Virus record (IMG/VR): IMGVR_UViG_3300037589_000052
Span: 1-41,146 of that record
DNA from: a virus
Lineage: Duplodnaviria > Caudoviricetes
DNA length: 41,146 bases
Direction: 5' to 3' (one strand)
In this document: positions 1,773-24,404 of the stretch, one piece after another
Layout: each line of letters opens with the position of its first letter
Numbering within the stretch: position 1 is the first letter of the stretch
Notes under the pieces: model-generated
What the model saw: the letters and a program-made list of their open reading frames with translations, nothing else
Databases searched by the model: none
Told to the model about the DNA's origin: nothing
Translations under genes and position numbers: made by a program

Positions 1773-2792
1773 TTACCAGCGCCAAGGCACTTCAACGAAC
1801 TCGAAGGTATCGCCCGCGCGGCGTATCTTACCCAGCGAGGGGAACGCGGCATGATAGCCCATCCATGTAATGCCATCGCTTGCAGCCCGATCAAGCAGCT
1901 TGATCCTCGTCTCTACCAGGCTCGGTCCGTCATACTCAAAGGCAGAGACCCAGCCCGGTGCAATGCTGTTTTGCTTCACAAGCAGCGTCGTATCCGAGGC
2001 GTAAAGCAACTGCTCGCCCCCGGATTCGATCAGCACGACAATGGAGCCTGGCGTATGACCTGGGGCAGGCAACAACAGGATGCCCGGTGCCACCTCACGC
2101 TCGACGCTCACATCTAACTGCTCCACATTCGGAGCCGCGACCGGCAACACTGCCTGCGTCGTACTGATGAAAAGGTCTTTGAAAGCCTCCGGCTGCGCGG
2201 AGGCTCGCACATCAGCCACCGCCTGATCAGACGTCCAGTAAGCCCATTCAGCGGCGTTCCAGATAATTTGAGCGTTGGGGAAGCGCAGCTTCAGGTTCGG
2301 GTCAACAAGGCCCGCAAAATGATCTGCATGGCCGTGCGTAATGATTACAGTGTCGATGTCACCCGGAGATACACCTGCATTGGCCAGCGCTAGTGCATGC
2401 CGCCCGAAACTTGATCCGAGGAAATGGCCAAAGCCGGCGTCGATGAGGATTTTGCGGTCACCTTCCTCGACGAGCAGCGCGTTCATGGCAAAGTCGATAT
2501 TGTCTTCGGGCTGCAGCAGTTGCGCCTGCACTTCGGCGAACTCCTCCGGCGTGGCATTTATGGCAAAAAGGTTCTGGCCAGGGAAAAATCCGTTGCCGTC
2601 CGCCAGCACCGTGATCGTCTTGGATCCCATTGTGTATCGGTAAAAGCCGGCGCCATTCATGGCCGGAGCAGGCGTCGCAGCCGTTTGGGCAAGAGCTACA
2701 GGTGCGGTCAAGCTAACGGCCGCAGTGGCCGCAGCTCCAGCCCCCAGCGTTCTGAAAAATGCGCGGCGGCCCACGGAGGATGTCTGTGTCAT
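1773..2792 (-). CDS. Tat-exported metallo-beta-lactamase-fold hydrolase (methyl-parathion-hydrolase/lactonase-like)
   Basis: Twin-arginine GRRAFF plus Ala-rich signal; LIDAG, THGHADH, PGHTPG and C-terminal YH metal motifs. Confidence 0.88.
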   Translation of the reverse strand: MTQTSSVGRRAFFRTLGAGAAATAAVSLTAPVALAQTAATPAPAMNGAGFYRYTMGSKTITVLADGNGFFPGQNLFAINATPEEFAEVQAQLLQPEDNIDFAMNALLVEEGDRKILIDAGFGHFLGSSFGRHALALANAGVSPGDIDTVIITHGHADHFAGLVDPNLKLRFPNAQIIWNAAEWAYWTSDQAVADVRASAQPEAFKDLFISTTQAVLPVAAPNVEQLDVSVEREVAPGILLLPAPGHTPGSIVVLIESGGEQLLYASDTTLLVKQNSIAPGWVSAFEYDGPSLVETRIKLLDRAASDGITWMGYHAAFPSLGKIRRAGDTFEFVEVPWRW

Positions 2793-2855
2793 GGTTGGAA
2801 CCTTTCGTCTTGAGAGGATTGCAGTGTCATGACGCAAAGGTACGTAGGGCTACAT

Positions 2856-2893
2856 ATGTTCACAATCTGCAGATCTGGAGAAACACTGAGAAC
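2856..2893. promoter_or_regulatory. Putative LysR-controlled promoter region upstream of the hydrolase
   Basis: ATGTTC...GAACAT dyad. It shares GTTCACAA with the palindrome GTTCACAAATGAAC (3830-3843) upstream of the LysR gene. Confidence 0.35.
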
Positions 2894-2938
2894 ATTTTGT
2901 AGATAGTCGAATTGATCATCGTCGTTGGATCATCTTGA

Positions 2939-3826
2939 TCAAAACTGCTCAGACAGGTGGTCTATCAATGCCCGGATGCGCGCGGTGAGATGACGGCTGG
3001 GCGGATAGACGACATAGAGCGCCAGCGGGTCGATCTCCTGCATCTCGAAAAGCGCGCGCAGGCTGCCGTTCTCAAGATAAGGGCGCACCATATAGGCGGG
3101 GAGCCGGCAGATGCCCATTCCATCGACCGCCATGCGCACCACGGCAGGTAGAGAATTGCTTCGAAAACTGCCCGATACATTTACGCCCAGTATGCCCTGC
3201 GGCCCCTTGAACCGCCAGGTGTCCGGCTGCGCACCGAGCGTCAGCAAAAGGCAATTATGACCCGTCAGCGCTTCTGGGGTCTCGGGCGTGCCGTGCGCAT
3301 CCAGATAGCCCGGGCTTGCACAACAAGTCACAGGCATTTCGGTCAGCTTGCGCGCTACGAGTGATGAATCGCTCAGACTGCCGAACCGGATGGCTAGATC
3401 AAAGCCTTCTTCCACAAGCGAGACATTGTGGTCCGACAGGAGCAACTCCACCTGAACATCAGGATTGGACTGTTGAAACGGACGCAGCATTTGGGTGAGG
3501 TGCATAGTGCCAAAGCCAGTGGAAGCGGCAATCCGGATACGACCCGCCAGTGCGCCTTGACGGCGTTGCACCAAGCCTTCTAATTCGTCAAACTGCTCGA
3601 TCAGCGGAAGGCAACGGGAGTAATACGCCTGCCCTGTCTCCGTGAGGGTCACGCTGCGCGTAGTGCGGTGGAACAACTGCGCACCTAATCGCGCCTCTAA
3701 CTGGCCGACGTATTTGCTTGCCAGTTTCGTGCTGATGCCTACCTGTTTTGCACCTTCAGTGAATGATCGGTGCGCTGCCACAGCGGCAAACGTCCGCATC
3801 CCTTCAATCGTATCTATTTTCGACAC
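2939..3826 (-). CDS. LysR-family transcriptional regulator (CrgA/DmlR-like); start uncertain
   Basis: N-terminal HTH (SFTEGAKQVGISTKLASKYVGQLEARLGAQLFHRTTRSVTLTETG) and substrate domain (LVEEGFDLAIR). Confidence 0.9.
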   Translation of the reverse strand: MSKIDTIEGMRTFAAVAAHRSFTEGAKQVGISTKLASKYVGQLEARLGAQLFHRTTRSVTLTETGQAYYSRCLPLIEQFDELEGLVQRRQGALAGRIRIAASTGFGTMHLTQMLRPFQQSNPDVQVELLLSDHNVSLVEEGFDLAIRFGSLSDSSLVARKLTEMPVTCCASPGYLDAHGTPETPEALTGHNCLLLTLGAQPDTWRFKGPQGILGVNVSGSFRSNSLPAVVRMAVDGMGICRLPAYMVRPYLENGSLRALFEMQEIDPLALYVVYPPSRHLTARIRALIDHLSEQF

Positions 3827-4284
3827 TCCGTTCACAAATGAACATTTTTTTCGAAGATTATCGCCCTTTTCCTCGCCTGTCATCCCGCTTGCTTCGCAGC
3901 AGCATTCAACCCGCTCAAACTATTGGCACCGAGTTTGAAGTGAAGTGCTGGATCTGTAGTTCTCGTGAAGGCTTATGGCCCAAACACCAGATTCGAAGAG
4001 TTTTGCGATTGTAGCTTAGTCACTCCTGACAAACCGAAGTGCATCAGCCATGTGTTCAGTCCAATGAACGGTTTGTCCGCATCTTACCGCTTCGTGACGC
4101 TCGCGACGAAGGTCAGCTATCGCGAATACGCGTATAGGGCTGCAGGTCCGCTCTGGGCTGACAGCTGCCATTGGGCGAAGGCCACAGCAAGTACCCAATG
4201 CCATCTTAAAACAAAGTAGCAGATGCGGCCTCATCGGAGGATCGAGACTGGGGCCTATCGAAGCTCGCTGAACTTGCCCCGCCC

Positions 4285-6282
4285 TTACGACGCGAGAGTG
4301 CGCTCAAGCTGCTGACCACGCGGAACTGTTATTGAAAATGTACACCCCTCACCTGGAGGCGACGAAAGTGAAACACTTCCCCCCCAGCCCTCAACCGTCT
4401 TCTGAACAAAGGCGAGGCCCAGACCACTTCCTGAGACCGAAGAAGACAGTCGTTTGAAGGGCTCAAATACAGTATCTTGATATTTCTCAGGGATACCGAC
4501 ACCGTCATCCGTCACGTGAATTTGGACATTCCCAAGGTCCTCCGTCGCAGAAATCACAACGCTTCCAGCGCTCTTGCCATGGTGTTTCAATGCGTTGCTG
4601 ATCAAGTTCCTCATCACCGCTTCGAAGGCGACAGGGTCTGCAAAAACCTGGGGCATTGTCTCAGGCATTTTTATCGTGAACCCTTCAGGAGGCTTCACTA
4701 CCTTCAAAACGTTTGCGAGCCGATCACAGGGGTCAAAACTCTGGGGCCTCCCATTTTCAGTCCCAGCGGAAGCATATGTGAGCAAGTCTTCAATCAACGT
4801 CATCATTACATCCGCTTGTTGCGTCAAGAGACCCAAGTATTCCTCAACAGTCTGAGGGACCTGAATTTCGGCATCGGCGAGGTCTTCAATAATGAACTCG
4901 ACCAGCGGGGCGATTCTGGAAACCGGGCTCCTTAAATCGTGCGCTGCAATCGCGGCAAATGACTCCAACTGCGCATTGGCTAGTTTCAACTCCTCGGCCT
5001 GCTGCACGATCGTTTCCTGGAGGGCGGCTTGGGCGGTCACGTCGACTCTGATTGACGCAAAGTGTTCCGCGCCAAGTCGGAAATCCCGGGCCTCATAAAC
5101 CAAGCCATTCCTCGCCTTGACCAACCGCCGATTGTCTTGCCCTGCCTTTACAGAGGCGATCACATCCGAAACGAATTCATCAACCGACTTGTCATTCACG
5201 CCGAATTCTACCACTGCGGCTTTGTACGATACACCGATCAAGTCAGCCATCGTCGCGCCCGCGTCGACCTGGCGCACGAGACGGGGAAAGCTCTTTGCGA
5301 AACCTGCATTCCGATGCACGGCGCGCATGTCTTTGTCATAGATTACGATGGCAGCATTGAGCTCATCCAATGCGTTAACGAGCAGGTCGTTTGCCTGGTT
5401 CGCCCGGAGAGCGCGCGCCGCTTCGCGTTTATAACGAAGCACACGTATACCAAGATAGCCCGTCACCGGCGCGAAGAGCGCGAGCAGGACCGCCACGATC
5501 CAGAACGCGGGTTTCTCATAGAGGTAGGTATCCCGTCCGAACCAACTTTCCCTGAGGGGCTTGATCATGGCGGGAGATAGAGACTGATCCAAGGCTTCAT
5601 TTAAGTCAGGCAAAAGATCCGCGCGCGCCTCGGAAACCAAAATCGCATAGGGCATGGAGACGAGGCTCGGCTCCAAGGTTGTGATCTCATCAAAAACCTT
5701 CGCCTCTCGCAGCCGGGCTGTAAACGCCTCTTGCCCAGATACCACCGCGTCGATCTCACCAAGCAAAAGCGGAACGATCAAATCGTCGGTCCGCTGAAAT
5801 TCCACAATTTCAGCGAACGGGATCATCCTTGCGGCTGAGATTGAGGCGCTACCCTTAACCACCCCAATGCTCTTGCCTGCCAAGTCTTCGTTGCGGTCGA
5901 ATTCACTCGTCCTCAGAGTGAAGGCAGCCAACTCGATGCTACCAACCTCTTGCGTTGCAAGAACTTCCTCCAGCCGCTCAGGGGTCGTCACCATGAACGT
6001 ACTGAGGTCAATTCTACCCGACGACAGCAACTCCATCGTGCGAGCAGGATTGGCGGAATAGACAAATTCAGGCTGATGCCCAGCTGTTTCAAGGACACGC
6101 CGCAGAACATCAATAGAGAAGCCATCAGCCTCCCCGACAGCATTAGTAAAACTATACGGAGGGAACTCGGTGAACCCGACTCTCAGTGTCTCAGCCGATG
6201 AAGAGGATGAGACGAACCAAGATGCCGCGGCCAGAGCGCTCAAGAGACCTTTGAGACGACGGTTGCGACGGACACGAGCCAT
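4285..6282 (-). CDS. Orphan sensor histidine kinase (periplasmic amino-acid-binding-type domain, TM, PAS-like, HisKA, HATPase)
   Basis: LRVGFTEFPPYSF...GFSIDV binding-protein motif; H-box AAHDLRSP; N-box NLISNALKH; G1 DDGVGIP; F-box VFEPF; G2 GSGLGL. Confidence 0.9.
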   Translation of the reverse strand: MARVRRNRRLKGLLSALAAASWFVSSSSSAETLRVGFTEFPPYSFTNAVGEADGFSIDVLRRVLETAGHQPEFVYSANPARTMELLSSGRIDLSTFMVTTPERLEEVLATQEVGSIELAAFTLRTSEFDRNEDLAGKSIGVVKGSASISAARMIPFAEIVEFQRTDDLIVPLLLGEIDAVVSGQEAFTARLREAKVFDEITTLEPSLVSMPYAILVSEARADLLPDLNEALDQSLSPAMIKPLRESWFGRDTYLYEKPAFWIVAVLLALFAPVTGYLGIRVLRYKREAARALRANQANDLLVNALDELNAAIVIYDKDMRAVHRNAGFAKSFPRLVRQVDAGATMADLIGVSYKAAVVEFGVNDKSVDEFVSDVIASVKAGQDNRRLVKARNGLVYEARDFRLGAEHFASIRVDVTAQAALQETIVQQAEELKLANAQLESFAAIAAHDLRSPVSRIAPLVEFIIEDLADAEIQVPQTVEEYLGLLTQQADVMMTLIEDLLTYASAGTENGRPQSFDPCDRLANVLKVVKPPEGFTIKMPETMPQVFADPVAFEAVMRNLISNALKHHGKSAGSVVISATEDLGNVQIHVTDDGVGIPEKYQDTVFEPFKRLSSSVSGSGLGLAFVQKTVEGWGGSVSLSSPPGEGCTFSITVPRGQQLERTLAS

Positions 6283-6686
6283 TTCATCACCCAGAATTGA
6301 GCTTGGTTGAAACACCAATAACAGCTTCATCCCTAAGGGATTGTAAACTCTGGAGTTCAGACAGGAGCATATTTTTGTCTAGGCTACCGGGCAACACTCA
6401 TTCTCAGTTTTTCAATTACTTCCGCTCGCTCTGCGCGTCCGTCCTACTTGGCCAAGCATTGAGTTGCACAAACCAGTTCCATCAATTGACACGACTGTTA
6501 GTCCGACAGCAGGGAAACACGCACCGCGTGCAATCTGCGACTCAGAACGAACTCAAAGCCAGTTGGTTTTAGGCACTGCTCCGCCAGACTTCGCTCATAA
6601 ATTTCCGCGCGGTTCTTGCTAAGACACTACCACCTTCGAGAAGCATCATTTCAAGACGGGGAAAGGTCAGCAGCACATTGGTAGTT

Positions 6687-8743: not shown

Positions 8744-9601
8744 ATGACGGCAAAGATCATCCAGTCGATCACCGAACTGCCAGTTGACGAGATCCAGATG
8801 GGCGACCGACTGCGGCCGGTCTCCCCGGCCGGTGTGGAGGCCATCAAGGCCTCGATCACCGAGCTCGGCGTGATGAAAGACGCCATCCACGTTCGCAAAC
8901 ACAAGCGCGGCGGCAAGATCGAACTACTCGCAGGAGCGCACCGCCTGACTGTCGCCCGTGAGCTGAATTGGCCGACCATCAAGGTGGTGTGCTGGGAATG
9001 CAATGACGACTTCGCGCGCCTGATGGAAATTGACGACAATCTCGCCGGGGCGGAACTCACAGCGCTCGACACTGCGGTGTTTCTCGCAGAGCGCAAGCGG
9101 GTCTATGAGAGGCTACATCCCGAAGCCAAGCAGGGCGGCGCACGCGGCAACCAGCACACAGGAGGTTGGCAAACGGACACGATGTCCTTTTGCCACGCAA
9201 CCGCAGAGAAATTCGGCATTTCAGACCGCCATGTGCGCCGCATGGTCAGCGCAGGGTCAGTACTGACCGGCGGTGACGCCCACCGGCTGCGCTCCTCCGG
9301 GCGTCCTGTAACCCTCAATGACCTGACTGAGCTCGCCAAAATCGGCGATGTATCCGAGCGCTACCGCGTGATCGACCTGCTGGCCGAAGGCAAAGTCAAA
9401 AGCGCTAAGGACGCGCGCAAGACCTGGGCAAGTGAGCAAAACCGGGGTGTGACGCCGCCGATGAACAACACCGAAAAGACCTGGCTGCGCCTGCAGGATG
9501 CCTGGAAGCGGGCCAGCAAGGCGGGTCGCGTGACCTTCCTTGAAGAACACGGGGCTGAGGTCCAGGCACTCCTCGACGAGATCCGCGAGGGGCAAGCCTG
9601 A
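8744..9601 (+). CDS. ParB-like N-terminal domain protein
   Basis: IHVRK...LLAGAHRLTVARELNW resembles the ParB/Srx GxxRxxA motif; C-terminal HTH (TAEKFGISDRHVRR); coupled to transposase A. Confidence 0.8.
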   Translation: MTAKIIQSITELPVDEIQMGDRLRPVSPAGVEAIKASITELGVMKDAIHVRKHKRGGKIELLAGAHRLTVARELNWPTIKVVCWECNDDFARLMEIDDNLAGAELTALDTAVFLAERKRVYERLHPEAKQGGARGNQHTGGWQTDTMSFCHATAEKFGISDRHVRRMVSAGSVLTGGDAHRLRSSGRPVTLNDLTELAKIGDVSERYRVIDLLAEGKVKSAKDARKTWASEQNRGVTPPMNNTEKTWLRLQDAWKRASKAGRVTFLEEHGAEVQALLDEIREGQA

Positions 9602-20073: not shown

Positions 20074-21735
20074 ATGGCGAAAACCCCGACCTTGCTCGAC
20101 CGCTGGGGAAACCCGGTTCGGCGCGCGGATCTCAAACACCAGGAGGAGCCCTCCCTCATCGGCGGGGTCCGAAGCCCGCTCACTGGATACCCCGGAGATG
20201 GGCTGAACCCCGGACGCTTGGCCGCCATTCTCAAGGATGCGGACGCTGGAGATCCCATCCGCTATCTGGAACTGGCGGAAACCATCGAGGAGCGGGACGC
20301 ACATTATCTCGGGGTCTTGGGAACCCGTCGCCGCTCCATCTCGCAGTTGGACATCACGGTGGAACCCGGAGAGGACACACCGCTTGGCGAAGAGATCGCC
20401 GAGCGCGTGCGCAAGTGGCTCTTGCGCGATGAGCTGACGGACGAGCTGTTCGAAATCCTCGACGCCCTGGGCAAAGGCTATTCCTTCACCCACATCCGCT
20501 GGGATACCTCCGAGGGGCAGTATGAACCCGCGACGCTCGAGTATTGCGACCCACGCTGGTTCCGCTTTGACCGCAAGGACCTGAAAACGCCTCGGATGCT
20601 GAACCCGGAAACCGGCCAAGAAGAGATCTTGCCGCCCTTCCAGTACATCTACGCACCGATGAAAGCGAAATCCGGCCTGCCGCTTCGCTCCGGTCTGGCG
20701 CGGGTGGCGCTCTGGGCGTGGCTCTTCAAGGCCTACACCCAACGGGACTGGGCGATCTTCACCCAGACCTATGGTCAGCCCTTGCGGATTGGCAAATATG
20801 GCCCCGGCACCTCCGAGGATGACCGCAAGACCTTGTTCAAGGCCGTTGCCAATATTGCCGGAGACTGCGCCGCGATCATTCCCGAAAGCATGATGATCGA
20901 GTTTCAGGAGGCCAAGAGCATCGGAGCCTCCACCGATCACTATGAGCGTCGGAGCGACTGGCTAGACAAGCAAACCTCCAAGCTGGTGCTCGGCCAAACC
21001 GCCACCACCGACGCGGAGACCGGCGGCTTGGGGTCCGGCAAAGAACACCGCCAAGTGCAGGAAGACATTGAGCGCGCGGATGCCAAACAACTCGGCGCAA
21101 TCATCAACCGCGATCTGATCCGCCCGTGGATCCAGCTTGAGTACGGCCCCGACGCGCCTGCCCCGCGCCTGAAAATCGGCCGCCCGGAGCCGGAAGACCT
21201 GGTAGCCTTCTCCAATGCGCTGAACCCGTTCATCCAGAATGGTCTGCGCGTGAAGCAGTCCGAGATCCTCGCAAAGTTCGGTCTCTCCGATCCGACGCAG
21301 AAAGAGGCTGCACTCGGCGGATCAGCGGCAAATTCGCCCGAAAATGGCCCGCAGGCCGCATCTGCGACCGGGCAATCGGATGGGATGGCCCCACAGAGCG
21401 AATTTAAATGCCGGTTAAACGCCTATCTCGACAATTTGGGGGGCGATGGTGCGCTGCAGGCTGAGGAGGCCCCTGAGAGGCGCTCTGAGGCGCTGCCGCC
21501 AGAGGCGATGCTTGCGGCGCGCCTCGAAACAGAGGCGCGCGCTGGGATGGGCAGCATGCTTGGCCGCATCGAGGAGATGCTGAAAGCCGCCGGGAGCTTT
21601 GAAGAGTTCCGCGAAATGCTGCTCGCCAGCTCAGATAAGATTGATGCGGCGGAACTGGAGGCCGTTCTGTCAAACGCCGTGCTCGCGGGCGAGCTTGGTG
21701 GGCGCGCGATGATCGAGGACGAAGCCGATGGTTGA
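20074..21735 (+). CDS. Portal protein (Mu gp29, DUF935)
   Basis: YGQPLRIGKY and SKLVLGQTATT motifs; synteny. Confidence 0.9.
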   Translation: MAKTPTLLDRWGNPVRRADLKHQEEPSLIGGVRSPLTGYPGDGLNPGRLAAILKDADAGDPIRYLELAETIEERDAHYLGVLGTRRRSISQLDITVEPGEDTPLGEEIAERVRKWLLRDELTDELFEILDALGKGYSFTHIRWDTSEGQYEPATLEYCDPRWFRFDRKDLKTPRMLNPETGQEEILPPFQYIYAPMKAKSGLPLRSGLARVALWAWLFKAYTQRDWAIFTQTYGQPLRIGKYGPGTSEDDRKTLFKAVANIAGDCAAIIPESMMIEFQEAKSIGASTDHYERRSDWLDKQTSKLVLGQTATTDAETGGLGSGKEHRQVQEDIERADAKQLGAIINRDLIRPWIQLEYGPDAPAPRLKIGRPEPEDLVAFSNALNPFIQNGLRVKQSEILAKFGLSDPTQKEAALGGSAANSPENGPQAASATGQSDGMAPQSEFKCRLNAYLDNLGGDGALQAEEAPERRSEALPPEAMLAARLETEARAGMGSMLGRIEEMLKAAGSFEEFREMLLASSDKIDAAELEAVLSNAVLAGELGGRAMIEDEADG

Positions 21736-22882
21736 TCTCGCGGCTAGTTTTCGCAAACCCTTTGCCGAACAAGTCGCCGCCTTTCGCCTTCGCCTCGGGG
21801 ATCTGGTGCCCACCGCGCGCTGGGATGACATCGAGCGCAGCGCCCATGATCGCGCTTTCATGGTTGCGGGGGCGGTGAAGGCTGACTTGCTGACCGATCT
21901 TGGGGCTGCGGTAGACAAAGCCATCGCTGCCGGAACCGGGTTTGAGACCTTCAAGCGCGATTTCCGGGAGATTGTCGAGCGCAATGGCTGGCACGGCTGG
22001 ACAGGCGAAGGCACGCCCGGTGGTGAAGAATGGCGCATGCGGGTGATCTACCGCACCAACATGCGCGTGTCATATCAGGCCGGGCGCTTTGCCCAGTTGC
22101 GTGACGGCGGGTTCAAGTATTGGGTCTACCGCCACGGCGGATCGCACGACCCACGCCCCGAGCATCTGGCGCTCGACGGTCTGATCCTAGAAGCCGACCA
22201 CCCATTCTGGGCAATCTGGTTTCCGCCCAATGGCTGGGGCTGTTCCTGCCGGGTCTTTGGCGCGCGCTCCAAAGCCGCCGCGATCCGGCGCGGTGGCAAT
22301 CCAAATGTGAAGCTCCCGACAGGCTGGGACGCGCGCGATCCGCGCACAGGCGCGCCACAAGGTATCGACCGGGGCTGGGACTATGCGCCGGGCGCAAGTG
22401 CTGCCGACACCATCCTCGCCTTTCGCGACAAACTGGAAAACCTGCACGCGCAGCCCGCAACCGATCTGATTGAAAGCTGGCTTGATGGACCGTTTAAGCG
22501 CTGGTTTGAGGAACCGCGCGGCGCATGGCCGCTTGCACGTCTAAGCGATGCAGATGCGCGGAAAATCGGCTCTCAGCGTCGCGTGGCGGAACTCTCGGCT
22601 GAAACCCTTGCGAAACAGCGCCGGCATCACCCCGAGCTGAAGGTCGCGGAATACGCGCAGGCGCAAGCGACAATCAATCTTGCAACCCACCGCGTGCAGG
22701 ACGGCGAAAACAGTCTGATTTTCGTGCGCGATGATCCCAGTGCGCCGGGATACGTGCTGGTCGTAAAGGCAACGAGAACCGGGCAAGGTCTCTTTGTCAC
22801 GAGCTTCCGGCGGCTGACTTCAAACCAAACAAAGCGGGACGCAGAGATCGCCCGACTGATGCGTAAAGGTGACGGGGGCTAG
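21728..22882 (+). CDS. MuF (gp30) head morphogenesis protein with C-terminal BECR-like (PBECR2-type) nuclease extension
   Basis: MuF core (IYRTNMRVSYQAGR, RPEH, PPNGWGCSC, GWDYAPG) followed by about 120 aa with HHPEL..EY and a beta-rich YVLVVKAT..LFVTSFR end. The nuclease assignment is by pattern recall. Confidence 0.8.
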   Translation: MVDLAASFRKPFAEQVAAFRLRLGDLVPTARWDDIERSAHDRAFMVAGAVKADLLTDLGAAVDKAIAAGTGFETFKRDFREIVERNGWHGWTGEGTPGGEEWRMRVIYRTNMRVSYQAGRFAQLRDGGFKYWVYRHGGSHDPRPEHLALDGLILEADHPFWAIWFPPNGWGCSCRVFGARSKAAAIRRGGNPNVKLPTGWDARDPRTGAPQGIDRGWDYAPGASAADTILAFRDKLENLHAQPATDLIESWLDGPFKRWFEEPRGAWPLARLSDADARKIGSQRRVAELSAETLAKQRRHHPELKVAEYAQAQATINLATHRVQDGENSLIFVRDDPSAPGYVLVVKATRTGQGLFVTSFRRLTSNQTKRDAEIARLMRKGDGG

Positions 22883-22908
22883 GCGAGAACCGTTTGGGAG
22901 GGAAAGGC

Positions 22909-23009
22909 GCAGGCGGTGGGGCCTCCCTCCAGCAAGCTGGCAACCCCACATGGCGCTCCGATCAAATGATCGTGCTACGGCCGGGAGTATATCACCGTGT
23001 CACGCCTGC
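22909..23009 (+). ncRNA. Candidate structured RNA (multi-stem junction with loop-loop pseudoknot)
   Basis: Closing stem GCAGGCG/CGCCTGC; inner stems GTGGGG/CCCCAC, CCAGC/GCTGG, TGGCGC/GTGCTA, GATCA/TGATC, ACGG/CCGT; loop complementarity CTCCC/GGGAG. Confidence 0.6.
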
Positions 23010-23025
23010 AATGGAGATCATAGGC

Positions 23026-23511
23026 ATGTACACCTTGAAATTCAATAACGAGGGATTGGAGTTGCGCCTGAAGCAGCTGCAATCGCAGCTCGATGATATG
23101 TCGCCTGTGATGCAGGATCTGGGCGAGTTTCTGGTGCAATCGACCCAAGACCGCATGTTGAAAGGTCAGCAGCCAGACGGAACCCCCTTCGCGCCGCGCA
23201 CGGAAACCACTCTGGCGCTCTACGCTGCCAAGGGGTTTCGATTTGGCGCACAACCACTGAACAAGAGCGGTGAGATGCGCCAACAGCTCAACTATCAGGC
23301 CAGCGCCGATGGGCTAACGTGGGGCAGCAATGCAATCCAAGCGGCGGTCATGCAGTTCGGGGCAAGGCAGGGTGCGTTTGGGTCAAATGCTAAGGGCACC
23401 CCGCTGCCTTGGGGCAACATTCCAGCCCGTCCGTTTCTCGGCCTGTCCGACACTGATCGCAGCGCAGTTGTGGAGGAGTTGGAGGGTTGGTTGGCACGAA
23501 ACCAGCAATGA
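23026..23511 (+). CDS. Virion morphogenesis protein (Mu gpG-like)
   Basis: GGAG RBS at 23013; QQPDGTPFAP, GSNAIQAAVMQFG and IPARPFLGLS motifs. Confidence 0.88.
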   Translation: MYTLKFNNEGLELRLKQLQSQLDDMSPVMQDLGEFLVQSTQDRMLKGQQPDGTPFAPRTETTLALYAAKGFRFGAQPLNKSGEMRQQLNYQASADGLTWGSNAIQAAVMQFGARQGAFGSNAKGTPLPWGNIPARPFLGLSDTDRSAVVEELEGWLARNQQ

Positions 23512-23660
23512 TCACCCGTAGAACCACATTACTTCGCCAAAGCTTTCCCTCCCGCGAAAGATACAACGCCCAAAGCCAGAACGGATTGAAGAACGCTGGC
23601 CAAATTTCTCAATATGCTGCAACCTATACGGGCTGTTTGTTTATTTTGGGAGGATCAGTT

Positions 23661-24317
23661 TTGGAAATAGTAGCACGAGCAAAGACATATACTTCTCTCT
23701 TTTCAGCTTTAATTCTCGCTCTTTCGCCATTCGCAGTCTCGGCGAATGAAGCACCGGCGGAGTTCTTCTTGTACGGATATGAGTTTGCCCCTTCTGAAGG
23801 AGACAGTTTTACCAGAACCAAAACCATTACCACTGGCGACCATCACTGCGAGAGCAGCTGCAAAGGTGAACCAACTCGAACGGGTTATCGGATAGAGGAC
23901 CGTGCGCAAGGGCCAAATGAACAAATAGTGGACGCTTCGCTATCGTGCGACTCTGGTTTGTGCGCATTTTCACAAGTCATCTCAGTCAATCATAATACCA
24001 CGTCGAGCTATGCAACATTCGATGTCTGGAGCCGTCCAATGAATTGGACCCTCACAACGACCTTTGTCCCAATCGAATGGGTTCAAGGTGACCGAAAGCA
24101 GATTGACAATGATCGCGTTGAGGCAGGTAGCGTTTTCCTAATCGAACATGATCGCAGGAACTTCATCGGGATCGACATGGATGTCGAAATTCCGAACCTC
24201 GGTCGGGTTCGCATGAATCCATCCTCACCACTTGAGCCCTACTTCTCGCTCATCAACAAATCCACGGTGGGGTTCACGGATACATATAGTATTCGCTTCA
24301 ATGGCACCTCAGGTTGA
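23661..24317 (+). CDS. Moron: secreted cysteine-containing hypothetical protein
   Basis: GGAGGA RBS before TTG; signal peptide (SLFSALILALSPFAVSA); 4 Cys; lower GC than neighbours. Confidence 0.7.
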   Translation: MEIVARAKTYTSLFSALILALSPFAVSANEAPAEFFLYGYEFAPSEGDSFTRTKTITTGDHHCESSCKGEPTRTGYRIEDRAQGPNEQIVDASLSCDSGLCAFSQVISVNHNTTSSYATFDVWSRPMNWTLTTTFVPIEWVQGDRKQIDNDRVEAGSVFLIEHDRRNFIGIDMDVEIPNLGRVRMNPSSPLEPYFSLINKSTVGFTDTYSIRFNGTSG

Positions 24318-24373
24318 CCGAACGAAGGTTTCCGATCACAATCAACTCCTGAGTGAGTAGAAAAGAGTATCGC

Positions 24374-24404
24374 GCCCCCGCACAGTCGGGGGCGTTTTTC
24401 GTTT
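24374..24404 (+). promoter_or_regulatory. Dyad plus T-tract element before the protease/capsid operon, copy 2
   Basis: GCCCCCGCACAGTCGGGGGCGTTTTTCGTTT; matches 15567-15598. Confidence 0.7.

Follow-up and report, generated by a model that had tools for sequence, protein, structure and literature searches.

A convergently encoded, structured RNA behind BECR-tipped MuF proteins of Mu-like phages is a candidate RNA immunity factor

The closest described relatives of the locus analysed here are the MuF polymorphic toxins and the MuF–PBECR fusions (PMC5576092, PMC5512222), which, in the available parts of both papers, join a MuF core from the head-packaging module to a swappable C-terminal toxin domain. 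Immunity is ascribed there to a small protein ORF, and such an ORF follows 89.4% of MuF toxins in the accessible text of Jamet et al. 2017 (PMC5576092). PBECR domains occur in up to 26% of polyvalent proteins, and the available sections offer only guesses at their targets and control (Iyer et al., PMC5512222). The present locus shares with these systems the core, the swappable domain and its genomic module, the exchange of cassettes on one core and a PBECR-type active-site motif. Its exchangeable tip is encoded in the head module of a temperate phage; a downstream immunity ORF was not found, and BECR tips are followed by a convergent RNA gene instead.

Protein toxins with a pseudoknotted RNA partner are known from type III toxin–antitoxin systems, in which, as far as the available text goes, the toxin gene is preceded by RNA repeats transcribed together with it (Blower et al. 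2012, PMC3401426). The RNA described here is likewise pseudoknotted, but it is a single 101-nt gene that lies behind the toxin, is read from the opposite strand and has a promoter of its own, so that the type III layout does not apply; the toxin, unlike those of that source, is a predicted BECR fold fused to a virion protein. Tandem copies, as in type III, were found here as well (L205). By analogy with the type III families ToxIN, CptIN and TenpIN, the RNA may act by neutralising the toxin. Neutralisation of a prophage toxin in cis and in trans by direct binding of a structured ncRNA has been described for AbiF/RCd22 (bioRxiv 10.1101/2025.04.15.648962); in the accessible part of that preprint, however, the toxin is Abi_2/Cas13-related, the RNA is encoded upstream of its gene, and the system acts in abortive infection rather than as a virion-borne effector. 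The pseudo-ToxI of phage PhiTE, a toxin-less, tandem-expanded antitoxin-like RNA, provides a precedent for orphan copies and arrays, but it mimics the antitoxin of a host plasmid in the available description (PMC3475682), whereas the RNA studied here usually accompanies a nuclease domain of the phage itself. No RNA linked to PBECR or MuF was described in the openly available literature searched, in its main texts. Large anonymous catalogues of candidate phage RNAs could hold the motif unnamed.

The window, i.e., the whole stretch of DNA analysed, is a complete virus record of 41,146 bases (IMGVR_UViG_3300037589_000052) with Mu-type genes for transposase, terminase, portal, gpF, gpG, protease I and gpT; the nearest named relatives of its gpF belong to Rhodobacteraceae. 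The original prediction had proposed that gpF extends past its MuF core and that the 143-nt gap before gpG folds into a compact 101-nt element. The extension and the gap (gpF stop at 22880-82, gpG ATG at 23026) were both confirmed, and the predicted segments were verified at their positions: GCAGGCG (22909-15) and CGCCTGC (23003-09), GTGGGG (22916-21) and CCCCAC (22944-49), CTCCC (22923-27) and GGGAG (22983-87). Features of the locus are collected in Table 1. Elsewhere in the window, the left end (1773-6330, minus strand) carries host-type genes for a metallo-beta-lactamase-fold protein, a LysR regulator and a histidine kinase, which fits the packaging of host DNA that is usual in Mu-like phages. 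An A+T-richer plus-strand ORF at 23487-24317, between gpG and the protease gene, has no Pfam match, is followed by a hairpin at about 24370-24400 and looks like a moron gene.

Table 1. Features of the gpF–gpG region and of the minus-strand RNA gene (window coordinates)
Feature	Position	Strand	Remarks
Portal	20074-21735		precedes gpF
gpF / MuF minor head protein, 384 aa	21728..22882	+	PF04233 at residues 59-176; between portal and gpG
Predicted colicin-like BECR domain, PBECR3 type, residues 258-384	22499..22879	+	AlphaFold pLDDT 91.6; structural matches; conserved residues
Type A structured RNA, 101 nt, putative 5' end 23009	22909..23009	-	four-way junction and loop-loop pseudoknot
P4 and optional P4a hairpin	22916..22949	-	loop arm GGGAG (22927-22923) pairs with P2 loop
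P3, variable hairpin	22955..22975	-	behind purine-rich internal loop (A / GA)
P2, ACGGU/GCCGU, invariant U·G	22977..22998	-	loop contains UGAUA and pseudoknot arm CUCCC (22987-22983)
P1 5' arm; 7-bp closing stem with 22915-22909	23003..23009	-	acceptor-stem-like; P4 directly next; 6/7 pairs compensatory
Sigma-70-type promoter of the RNA	23017..23045	-	-35 TTGAAT 23045-23040, 17-nt spacer, -10 TATGAT 23022-23017; overlaps gpG start
gpG, virion morphogenesis protein	23026..23511	+	PF05069

Homologues of the element, hereafter type A, were sampled through domain searches and a loose pattern (at least 120 matches, with about 310 estimated), which gave 79 distinct copies; the domain lay nearby in 59 of the 120 matches listed, and many of the others were chance matches in coding DNA that a fuller motif removed. 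A covariance model yielded an alignment of 94 copies, fitted to the nested structure and with the pseudoknot outside the model. Across these 94 homologues, 98.7% of the cells are paired and 23 of the 34 pairs change on both sides. The CUCCC/GGGAG contact, which the original prediction had read as a pseudoknot, is paired in 100% of cases, with compensatory changes at four of its five pairs, so that the folded element and its contact are borne out by covariation. When the structure was slid by 1-3 columns as a control, only 37-45% paired. The invariance of the core is partly imposed by the search pattern; copies found via the protein have a similar core, with compensatory variants. Folding of the single sequence was no more than modestly above chance for the 101 nt (z -2.2; z +0.5 for the whole gap) and does not convince by itself; it is the homologues that decide the reality of the element. 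On this comparative evidence, type A is a real, uncatalogued RNA gene family.

Some details of the predicted fold were revised. The proposed 6-bp TGGCGC/GTGCTA helix was not upheld, since its TGG side varies freely and support is confined to two pairs and an internal loop; the CCAGC/GCTGG hairpin exists in the window but is optional, being missing in 27 of the 94 homologues. The view that the gap holds no ORF needs qualification, as the gpG frame is open upstream back to a TTG at 22894, but element lengths are spread over all three mod-3 classes (34/23/36 across 93 homologues), so that the element is under no coding constraint. No Rfam family was assigned to the element in searches of the window at gathering score, of the region at E≤10 and of 13 homologues; the sole relevant weak match, tRNA-Sec (E 0.28), fell on a neighbouring pseudo-tRNA of L126. 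Searching the RNA with blastn against 50,697 GenBank phages returned no match. The loose pattern also caught another recurring motif in seven loci (L022, L028, L047, L066, L087, L128, L134), with the common sequence GATGCGGTCG...CGCTCCTGCACTTACGCGCTACGGCCCTTAG; neither MuF nor the domain was found near these loci, which possibly carry another phage ncRNA.

The layout of the four-way junction, with P1 leading into P4, pairing between the P2 and P4 loops and a variable P3, appears to resemble that of a tRNA. ARAGORN made no tRNA call for type A; a conserved 3' CCA and a canonical T-arm are absent, and the element does not qualify as a tRNA. A T-loop is a candidate reading of the UGAUA of the P2 loop, in which U and A are near-invariant; against it, position 4 is mostly a pyrimidine, and a second RNA type described below, type B, is without the motif.

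The original prediction had implicitly placed the RNA on the plus strand, at the tail of the gpF message. Reading the supported fold on the minus strand gave 266 G·U against 11 A·C pairs, or 84 against 11 without two near-invariant columns; in P1, with the pairing chosen on Watson-Crick pairs only, the counts were 20 and 4. The only sigma-70-type site within 500 bp is the minus-strand one (0.2 expected), and its -10 box ends 7 nt ahead of the first base of P1. In 57 of 93 homologues, P1 is preceded at 5-12 nt by a -10 box, compared with 2 of 93 at the opposite end, and 31 of these 57 have a TTG at -35 spacing, while the sequences upstream of P1 are otherwise unrelated among homologues. Because of the predominance of G·U over A·C and the conserved sigma-70 promoter, the RNA is assigned to a minus-strand gene convergent with gpF, and the transcript probably starts at 23009 and runs toward the gpF stop. 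Convergent orientation was observed in 79 of 80 loci, and in some of them the RNA overlaps the gpF stop. A clear terminator is absent from most type A loci.

The tip of gpF was modelled as an N-terminal helix followed by a 4-5-stranded sheet, the arrangement of the BECR fold that had been anticipated for the extension. The top seven structural matches from VIA are all BECR RNase toxins, namely BrnT, the 7vd7 toxin, CdiA-CTs and colicin D, at middling Z-scores (BrnT 6.8, rmsd 2.9, 75 aligned; CdiA-CT 6.1/6.0; colicin D 5.8); Foldseek returned no match at E≤0.001 for the tip model against the PDB. According to the available text of Iyer et al. 2017 (PMC5512222), the PBECR active site comprises a His in the first helix and a Ser/Thr in the last strand, and the tip has a Lys-preceded His in the (pre-)alpha helix together with Ser/Thr in the last strand. 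Conserved residues are K296, Q297, H301, Y309, K347, T349, T358/S359 and R370; among 46 homologues, K296 is invariant and H301, T358 and S359 are kept in at least 90%. The residue pattern also agrees with the colicin-like group of Pham et al. (bioRxiv 10.64898/2026.08.28.747851), in whose accessible text tRNA is the usual target of the characterised members, and the modelled tip may thus be an active RNase, probably acting on tRNA. The window's domain gave no match to Pfam PBECR3 (PF18812) at the curated cut-off of 30 bits; below the cut-off, the model was matched in relatives (4 of 10 members, best E 0.025; L263, 26.6 bits). The domain represents an uncatalogued family related to PBECR3, with 908 representatives at E≤0.001. 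The fold searches lent no support to the HIT domain that a Pfam match (E 0.008) had suggested.

The coupling of RNA and tip was assessed in a collection defined by the MuF core only. It held 84 loci, 58 of which had a usable stop, flank and core-end motif and were reduced to 36 distinct rows; of the 26 loci left out, five were inspected manually. All seven short MuFs are without the RNA and reach gpG within 24 nt or less. The 19 rows with BECR-type tips have a 60-180-nt non-coding gap with a folded element, which is of type A in 7 rows and of type B in 1; the elements of the other 11 were judged by eye. Visibly degenerate tips (7 rows) lack the element, six abutting gpG and one having a 75-aa ORF. 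An ART tip (L239) is followed by an 89-aa ORF and a tip without Pfam match, which we read as peptidase-like (L244), by a 68-aa ORF; one row could not be placed. The MuF cores of L239, L244 and L236, the last of which carries the window-type domain and RNA, are nearly identical (support 100/100). Of 17 RNA-bearing rows, 15 have a minus-strand -10 box where gpG starts, compared with 2 of 16 other MuF rows. A Fisher test on the tip and gap classes (p 2e-10) was set aside, as the classes had been set by eye after the gaps were seen.

A fixed motif rule (H301, K347, S/T359) was applied to 88 distinct domain loci. The motif was intact and the RNA present in 73; three had an intact motif without a type A or B match, these carrying a third element as judged by eye; seven had a changed motif with the RNA, and five a changed motif without it. 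In the protein-first subset, the same four classes held 43, 3, 3 and 5 loci (p=8e-4, a value that overstates independence because the loci are related). In the closest sisters of the window gpF, with 97% core identity and TSFRR replaced by TNIQR, the whole gap is lost, and no copy of the RNA was found elsewhere in two near-complete genomes of these sisters. In one phage (L136/L233), S359G goes together with damage to the -10 box and a lower score of the RNA. In phage Mu, F overlaps G; the Mu domain is called inactive in the available text of Iyer et al. (PMC5512222). These comparisons indicate that the RNA is tied to BECR-tipped MuF proteins and occupies the immunity position. The central proposal, a BECR tip followed by a pseudoknotted RNA, possibly a tRNA mimic, in the immunity slot, thus gains strong comparative support, except that the RNA is encoded opposite to the gpF message and does not form its tail. 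The refuting condition named with the prediction, an RNA present regardless of the nuclease extension, mostly failed to apply, as the seven short MuFs are without it; exceptions are four orphan genomes and a pseudo-tRNA behind the short MuF of L314.

Each tip class was found with its own RNA class. Type B shares the CUCCC/GGGAG contact, adds another pseudoknot and is preceded by a -10 box of its own; 17 of its 40 pairs show compensatory changes in 12 sequences. The type A covariance model did not detect types B and C; as far as established, the RNA types share only P1/P4 and the CUCCC/GGGAG contact. PBECR3 and related tips are followed by 60-95-nt minus-strand elements in the gpF–gpG gaps. Hairpin loops of 7 nt centred on CAU, GAU or AAU were seen in L258, L271, L304, L274, L269, L254 and L266; those centred on CAU or GAU presumably recall Met/Ile anticodon loops. 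A further class resembles tRNA more closely, having a 7-bp acceptor stem, a D-arm, a canonical T-arm and a degenerate anticodon arm, but no CCA. Nine of the 12 pattern matches are pseudo-tRNAs of this kind (L316 (= L248), L311, L313, L315, L318, L319, L314, L320, L312), and seven of the nine are convergent behind MuF. A tRNA-like score was obtained for 5 of the 12 matches, and ARAGORN labels some pseudo-tRNAs Gly, SeC or ???. The statistics of one alignment, in which the L311 row lay on the wrong strand, were left aside. The window-type domain and the domain linked to pseudo-tRNAs gave no significant profile match (probability 2.8%), so this tip class is only weakly tied to PBECR; its own matches to MuF_C/PBECR3 have E 0.008-0.09. 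An A+T-rich element with a similar layout was also seen in a Helicobacter prophage.

Type A copies also occur outside the usual arrangement. In L009, L174 and L175, an insertion of about 1 kb, DNA methylase-like by sequence, lies between gpF and the RNA, and the RNA keeps its place at the start of gpG. The tandem locus (L205:2770-3745), from a genome-collection record, holds five type A RNAs, each preceded by a -10-like box, behind a MuF-less domain and adjoining a RadC-like ORF; mixed tandems were found in L219 and L225. Ten type A copies lie in records without the window-type domain. One of these adjoins a pseudo-tRNA; in G007, type A sits behind a PBECR2 tip, after a second element, and is therefore not strictly cognate. 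Four complete phages with type A (G002, G003, G006, G009 = L026, L031, L082, L117) gave no PBECR-model match in searches that ran PBECR1, PBECR3 and MuF_C without positive control, PBECR4/5 being outside the set. In L026 and L031, the orphan RNA lies directly ahead of small same-strand ORFs with ribosome-binding sites. In G004, type A was observed about 750 nt behind a gene for a 2,563-aa polyvalent protein. The copies without the domain and the case of L314 fit spare immunity, for which PhiTE is a precedent, but also a decoy role.

We consider it narrowly probable that the RNA is a separately transcribed, tRNA-shaped antitoxin for a virion-borne RNase. The gpF tip would be a tRNA-cutting BECR ribonuclease, and the opposite-strand RNA would fold like a tRNA, bind the ribonuclease and block it, thereby filling the role of immunity gene in a MuF polymorphic toxin. 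With a sigma-70 promoter, it would be made in the lysogen and during lytic growth, gpF being a late gene; it would protect the producing cell, and lysogens would be immune to the same RNase arriving in related virions. The RNA could inhibit by binding directly or by competing as a mimic; P1 would stack on P4, the P2–P4 loop contact would form the elbow, and orphan and tandem copies could provide spare or broadened immunity. Counting against the antitoxin are the middling structural Z-scores, the PBECR3 match below cut-off, type A behind the PBECR2 tip of G007, the seven changed-motif loci that keep the RNA, the orphans, L314 and the missing CCA and T-arm. Somewhat short of probable is the generalisation that pairing with an RNA immunity gene holds for phage BECR RNases at large. 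MuF toxins would then exchange cassettes of nuclease and tRNA-mimic RNA, the latter in several unrelated folds that include pseudo-tRNAs and pseudoknotted four-way junctions, for cassettes that combine a toxin with protein immunity, and orphan RNAs would confer broad immunity. If true, a polymorphic toxin system would have an RNA immunity factor, joining the fields of polymorphic toxins and RNA antitoxins, and there would be a reason why many MuF nucleases seem to be without immunity genes and a natural library of matched pairs of RNase and inhibitor RNA. Some "aberrant tRNAs" of phages may be nuclease inhibitors. The matched, separately transcribed RNA offers an experimental handle, since domains can be assayed for toxicity and RNAs for rescue within and across the classes, and several uncatalogued phage ncRNA families are added.

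The main rival to the antitoxin, which we regard as rather unlikely, assigns the effector role to the RNA and that of maturase or carrier to the domain: the tip would trim or bind the RNA and perhaps package it into the virion, and the tRNA-shaped RNA would serve as a decoy for host defences that target tRNA or are based on RNA. Such a decoy is consistent with the orphan copies in complete phages that lack a detectable domain, with dosage arrays and with the pseudo-tRNA class, and joint loss of motif and RNA fits it equally well. Without a clear terminator, the 3' end must be made somehow, and PBECRs may counter RNA-based host restriction according to the available text of Iyer et al. (PMC5512222). 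An unrelated RNA fold for each tip class, however, is what matched inhibitors and not one anti-defence decoy would show; sister cassettes, moreover, put protein immunity ORFs in the same slot, and a sigma-70 promoter is suited to lysogeny, a state in which gpF is not produced. Less probable again is type I-like cis-antisense control, in which the transcript would read into gpF and silence leaky toxin message, the 5' fold acting as a stabiliser, or in which gpF would bind the element and regulate the F–G junction. Besides the convergent orientation and the overlap with the gpF stop, this agrees with RNA-library contigs of a relative that extend from 23009 at least 590 nt into gpF. But antisense pairing needs neither an invariant junction nor a compensatory pseudoknot, tandem and orphan copies exist, and the RNA is kept despite the methylase insertion. 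The expression data comprise contigs only, from four runs with small word shares; the relative is a prophage with a deletion, its late genes are covered to a similar depth, and for this reason the contig is not counted as proof of expression. One contig ends at 23009 with a fold-back, which is weakly consistent with a molecule end there.

We find it very improbable that type A is an independent phage small RNA, a riboswitch-like leader or a ribozyme that merely favours this site. The orphans, two of them just upstream of small ORFs, and the highly invariant core would fit, but the RNA is absent after short MuFs and non-RNase tips, is lost with a changed motif, is replaced by unrelated RNAs at other PBECR-like tips and has no Rfam match. 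A plus-strand structure in the late message, excised by gpF in the manner of ToxI or controlling gpG translation, is scarcely credible: its Watson-Crick stems would be identical on both strands and the element does end just ahead of the gpG ribosome-binding site, but the G·U excess and the promoter are both on the minus side.

In a relative from runs X1 and X2, window position 8997 is joined to 22324, a 13.3-kb deletion that keeps the BECR part and the RNA. By arithmetic, this join fuses a ParB-like ORF at 8744 in frame to the gpF tail.
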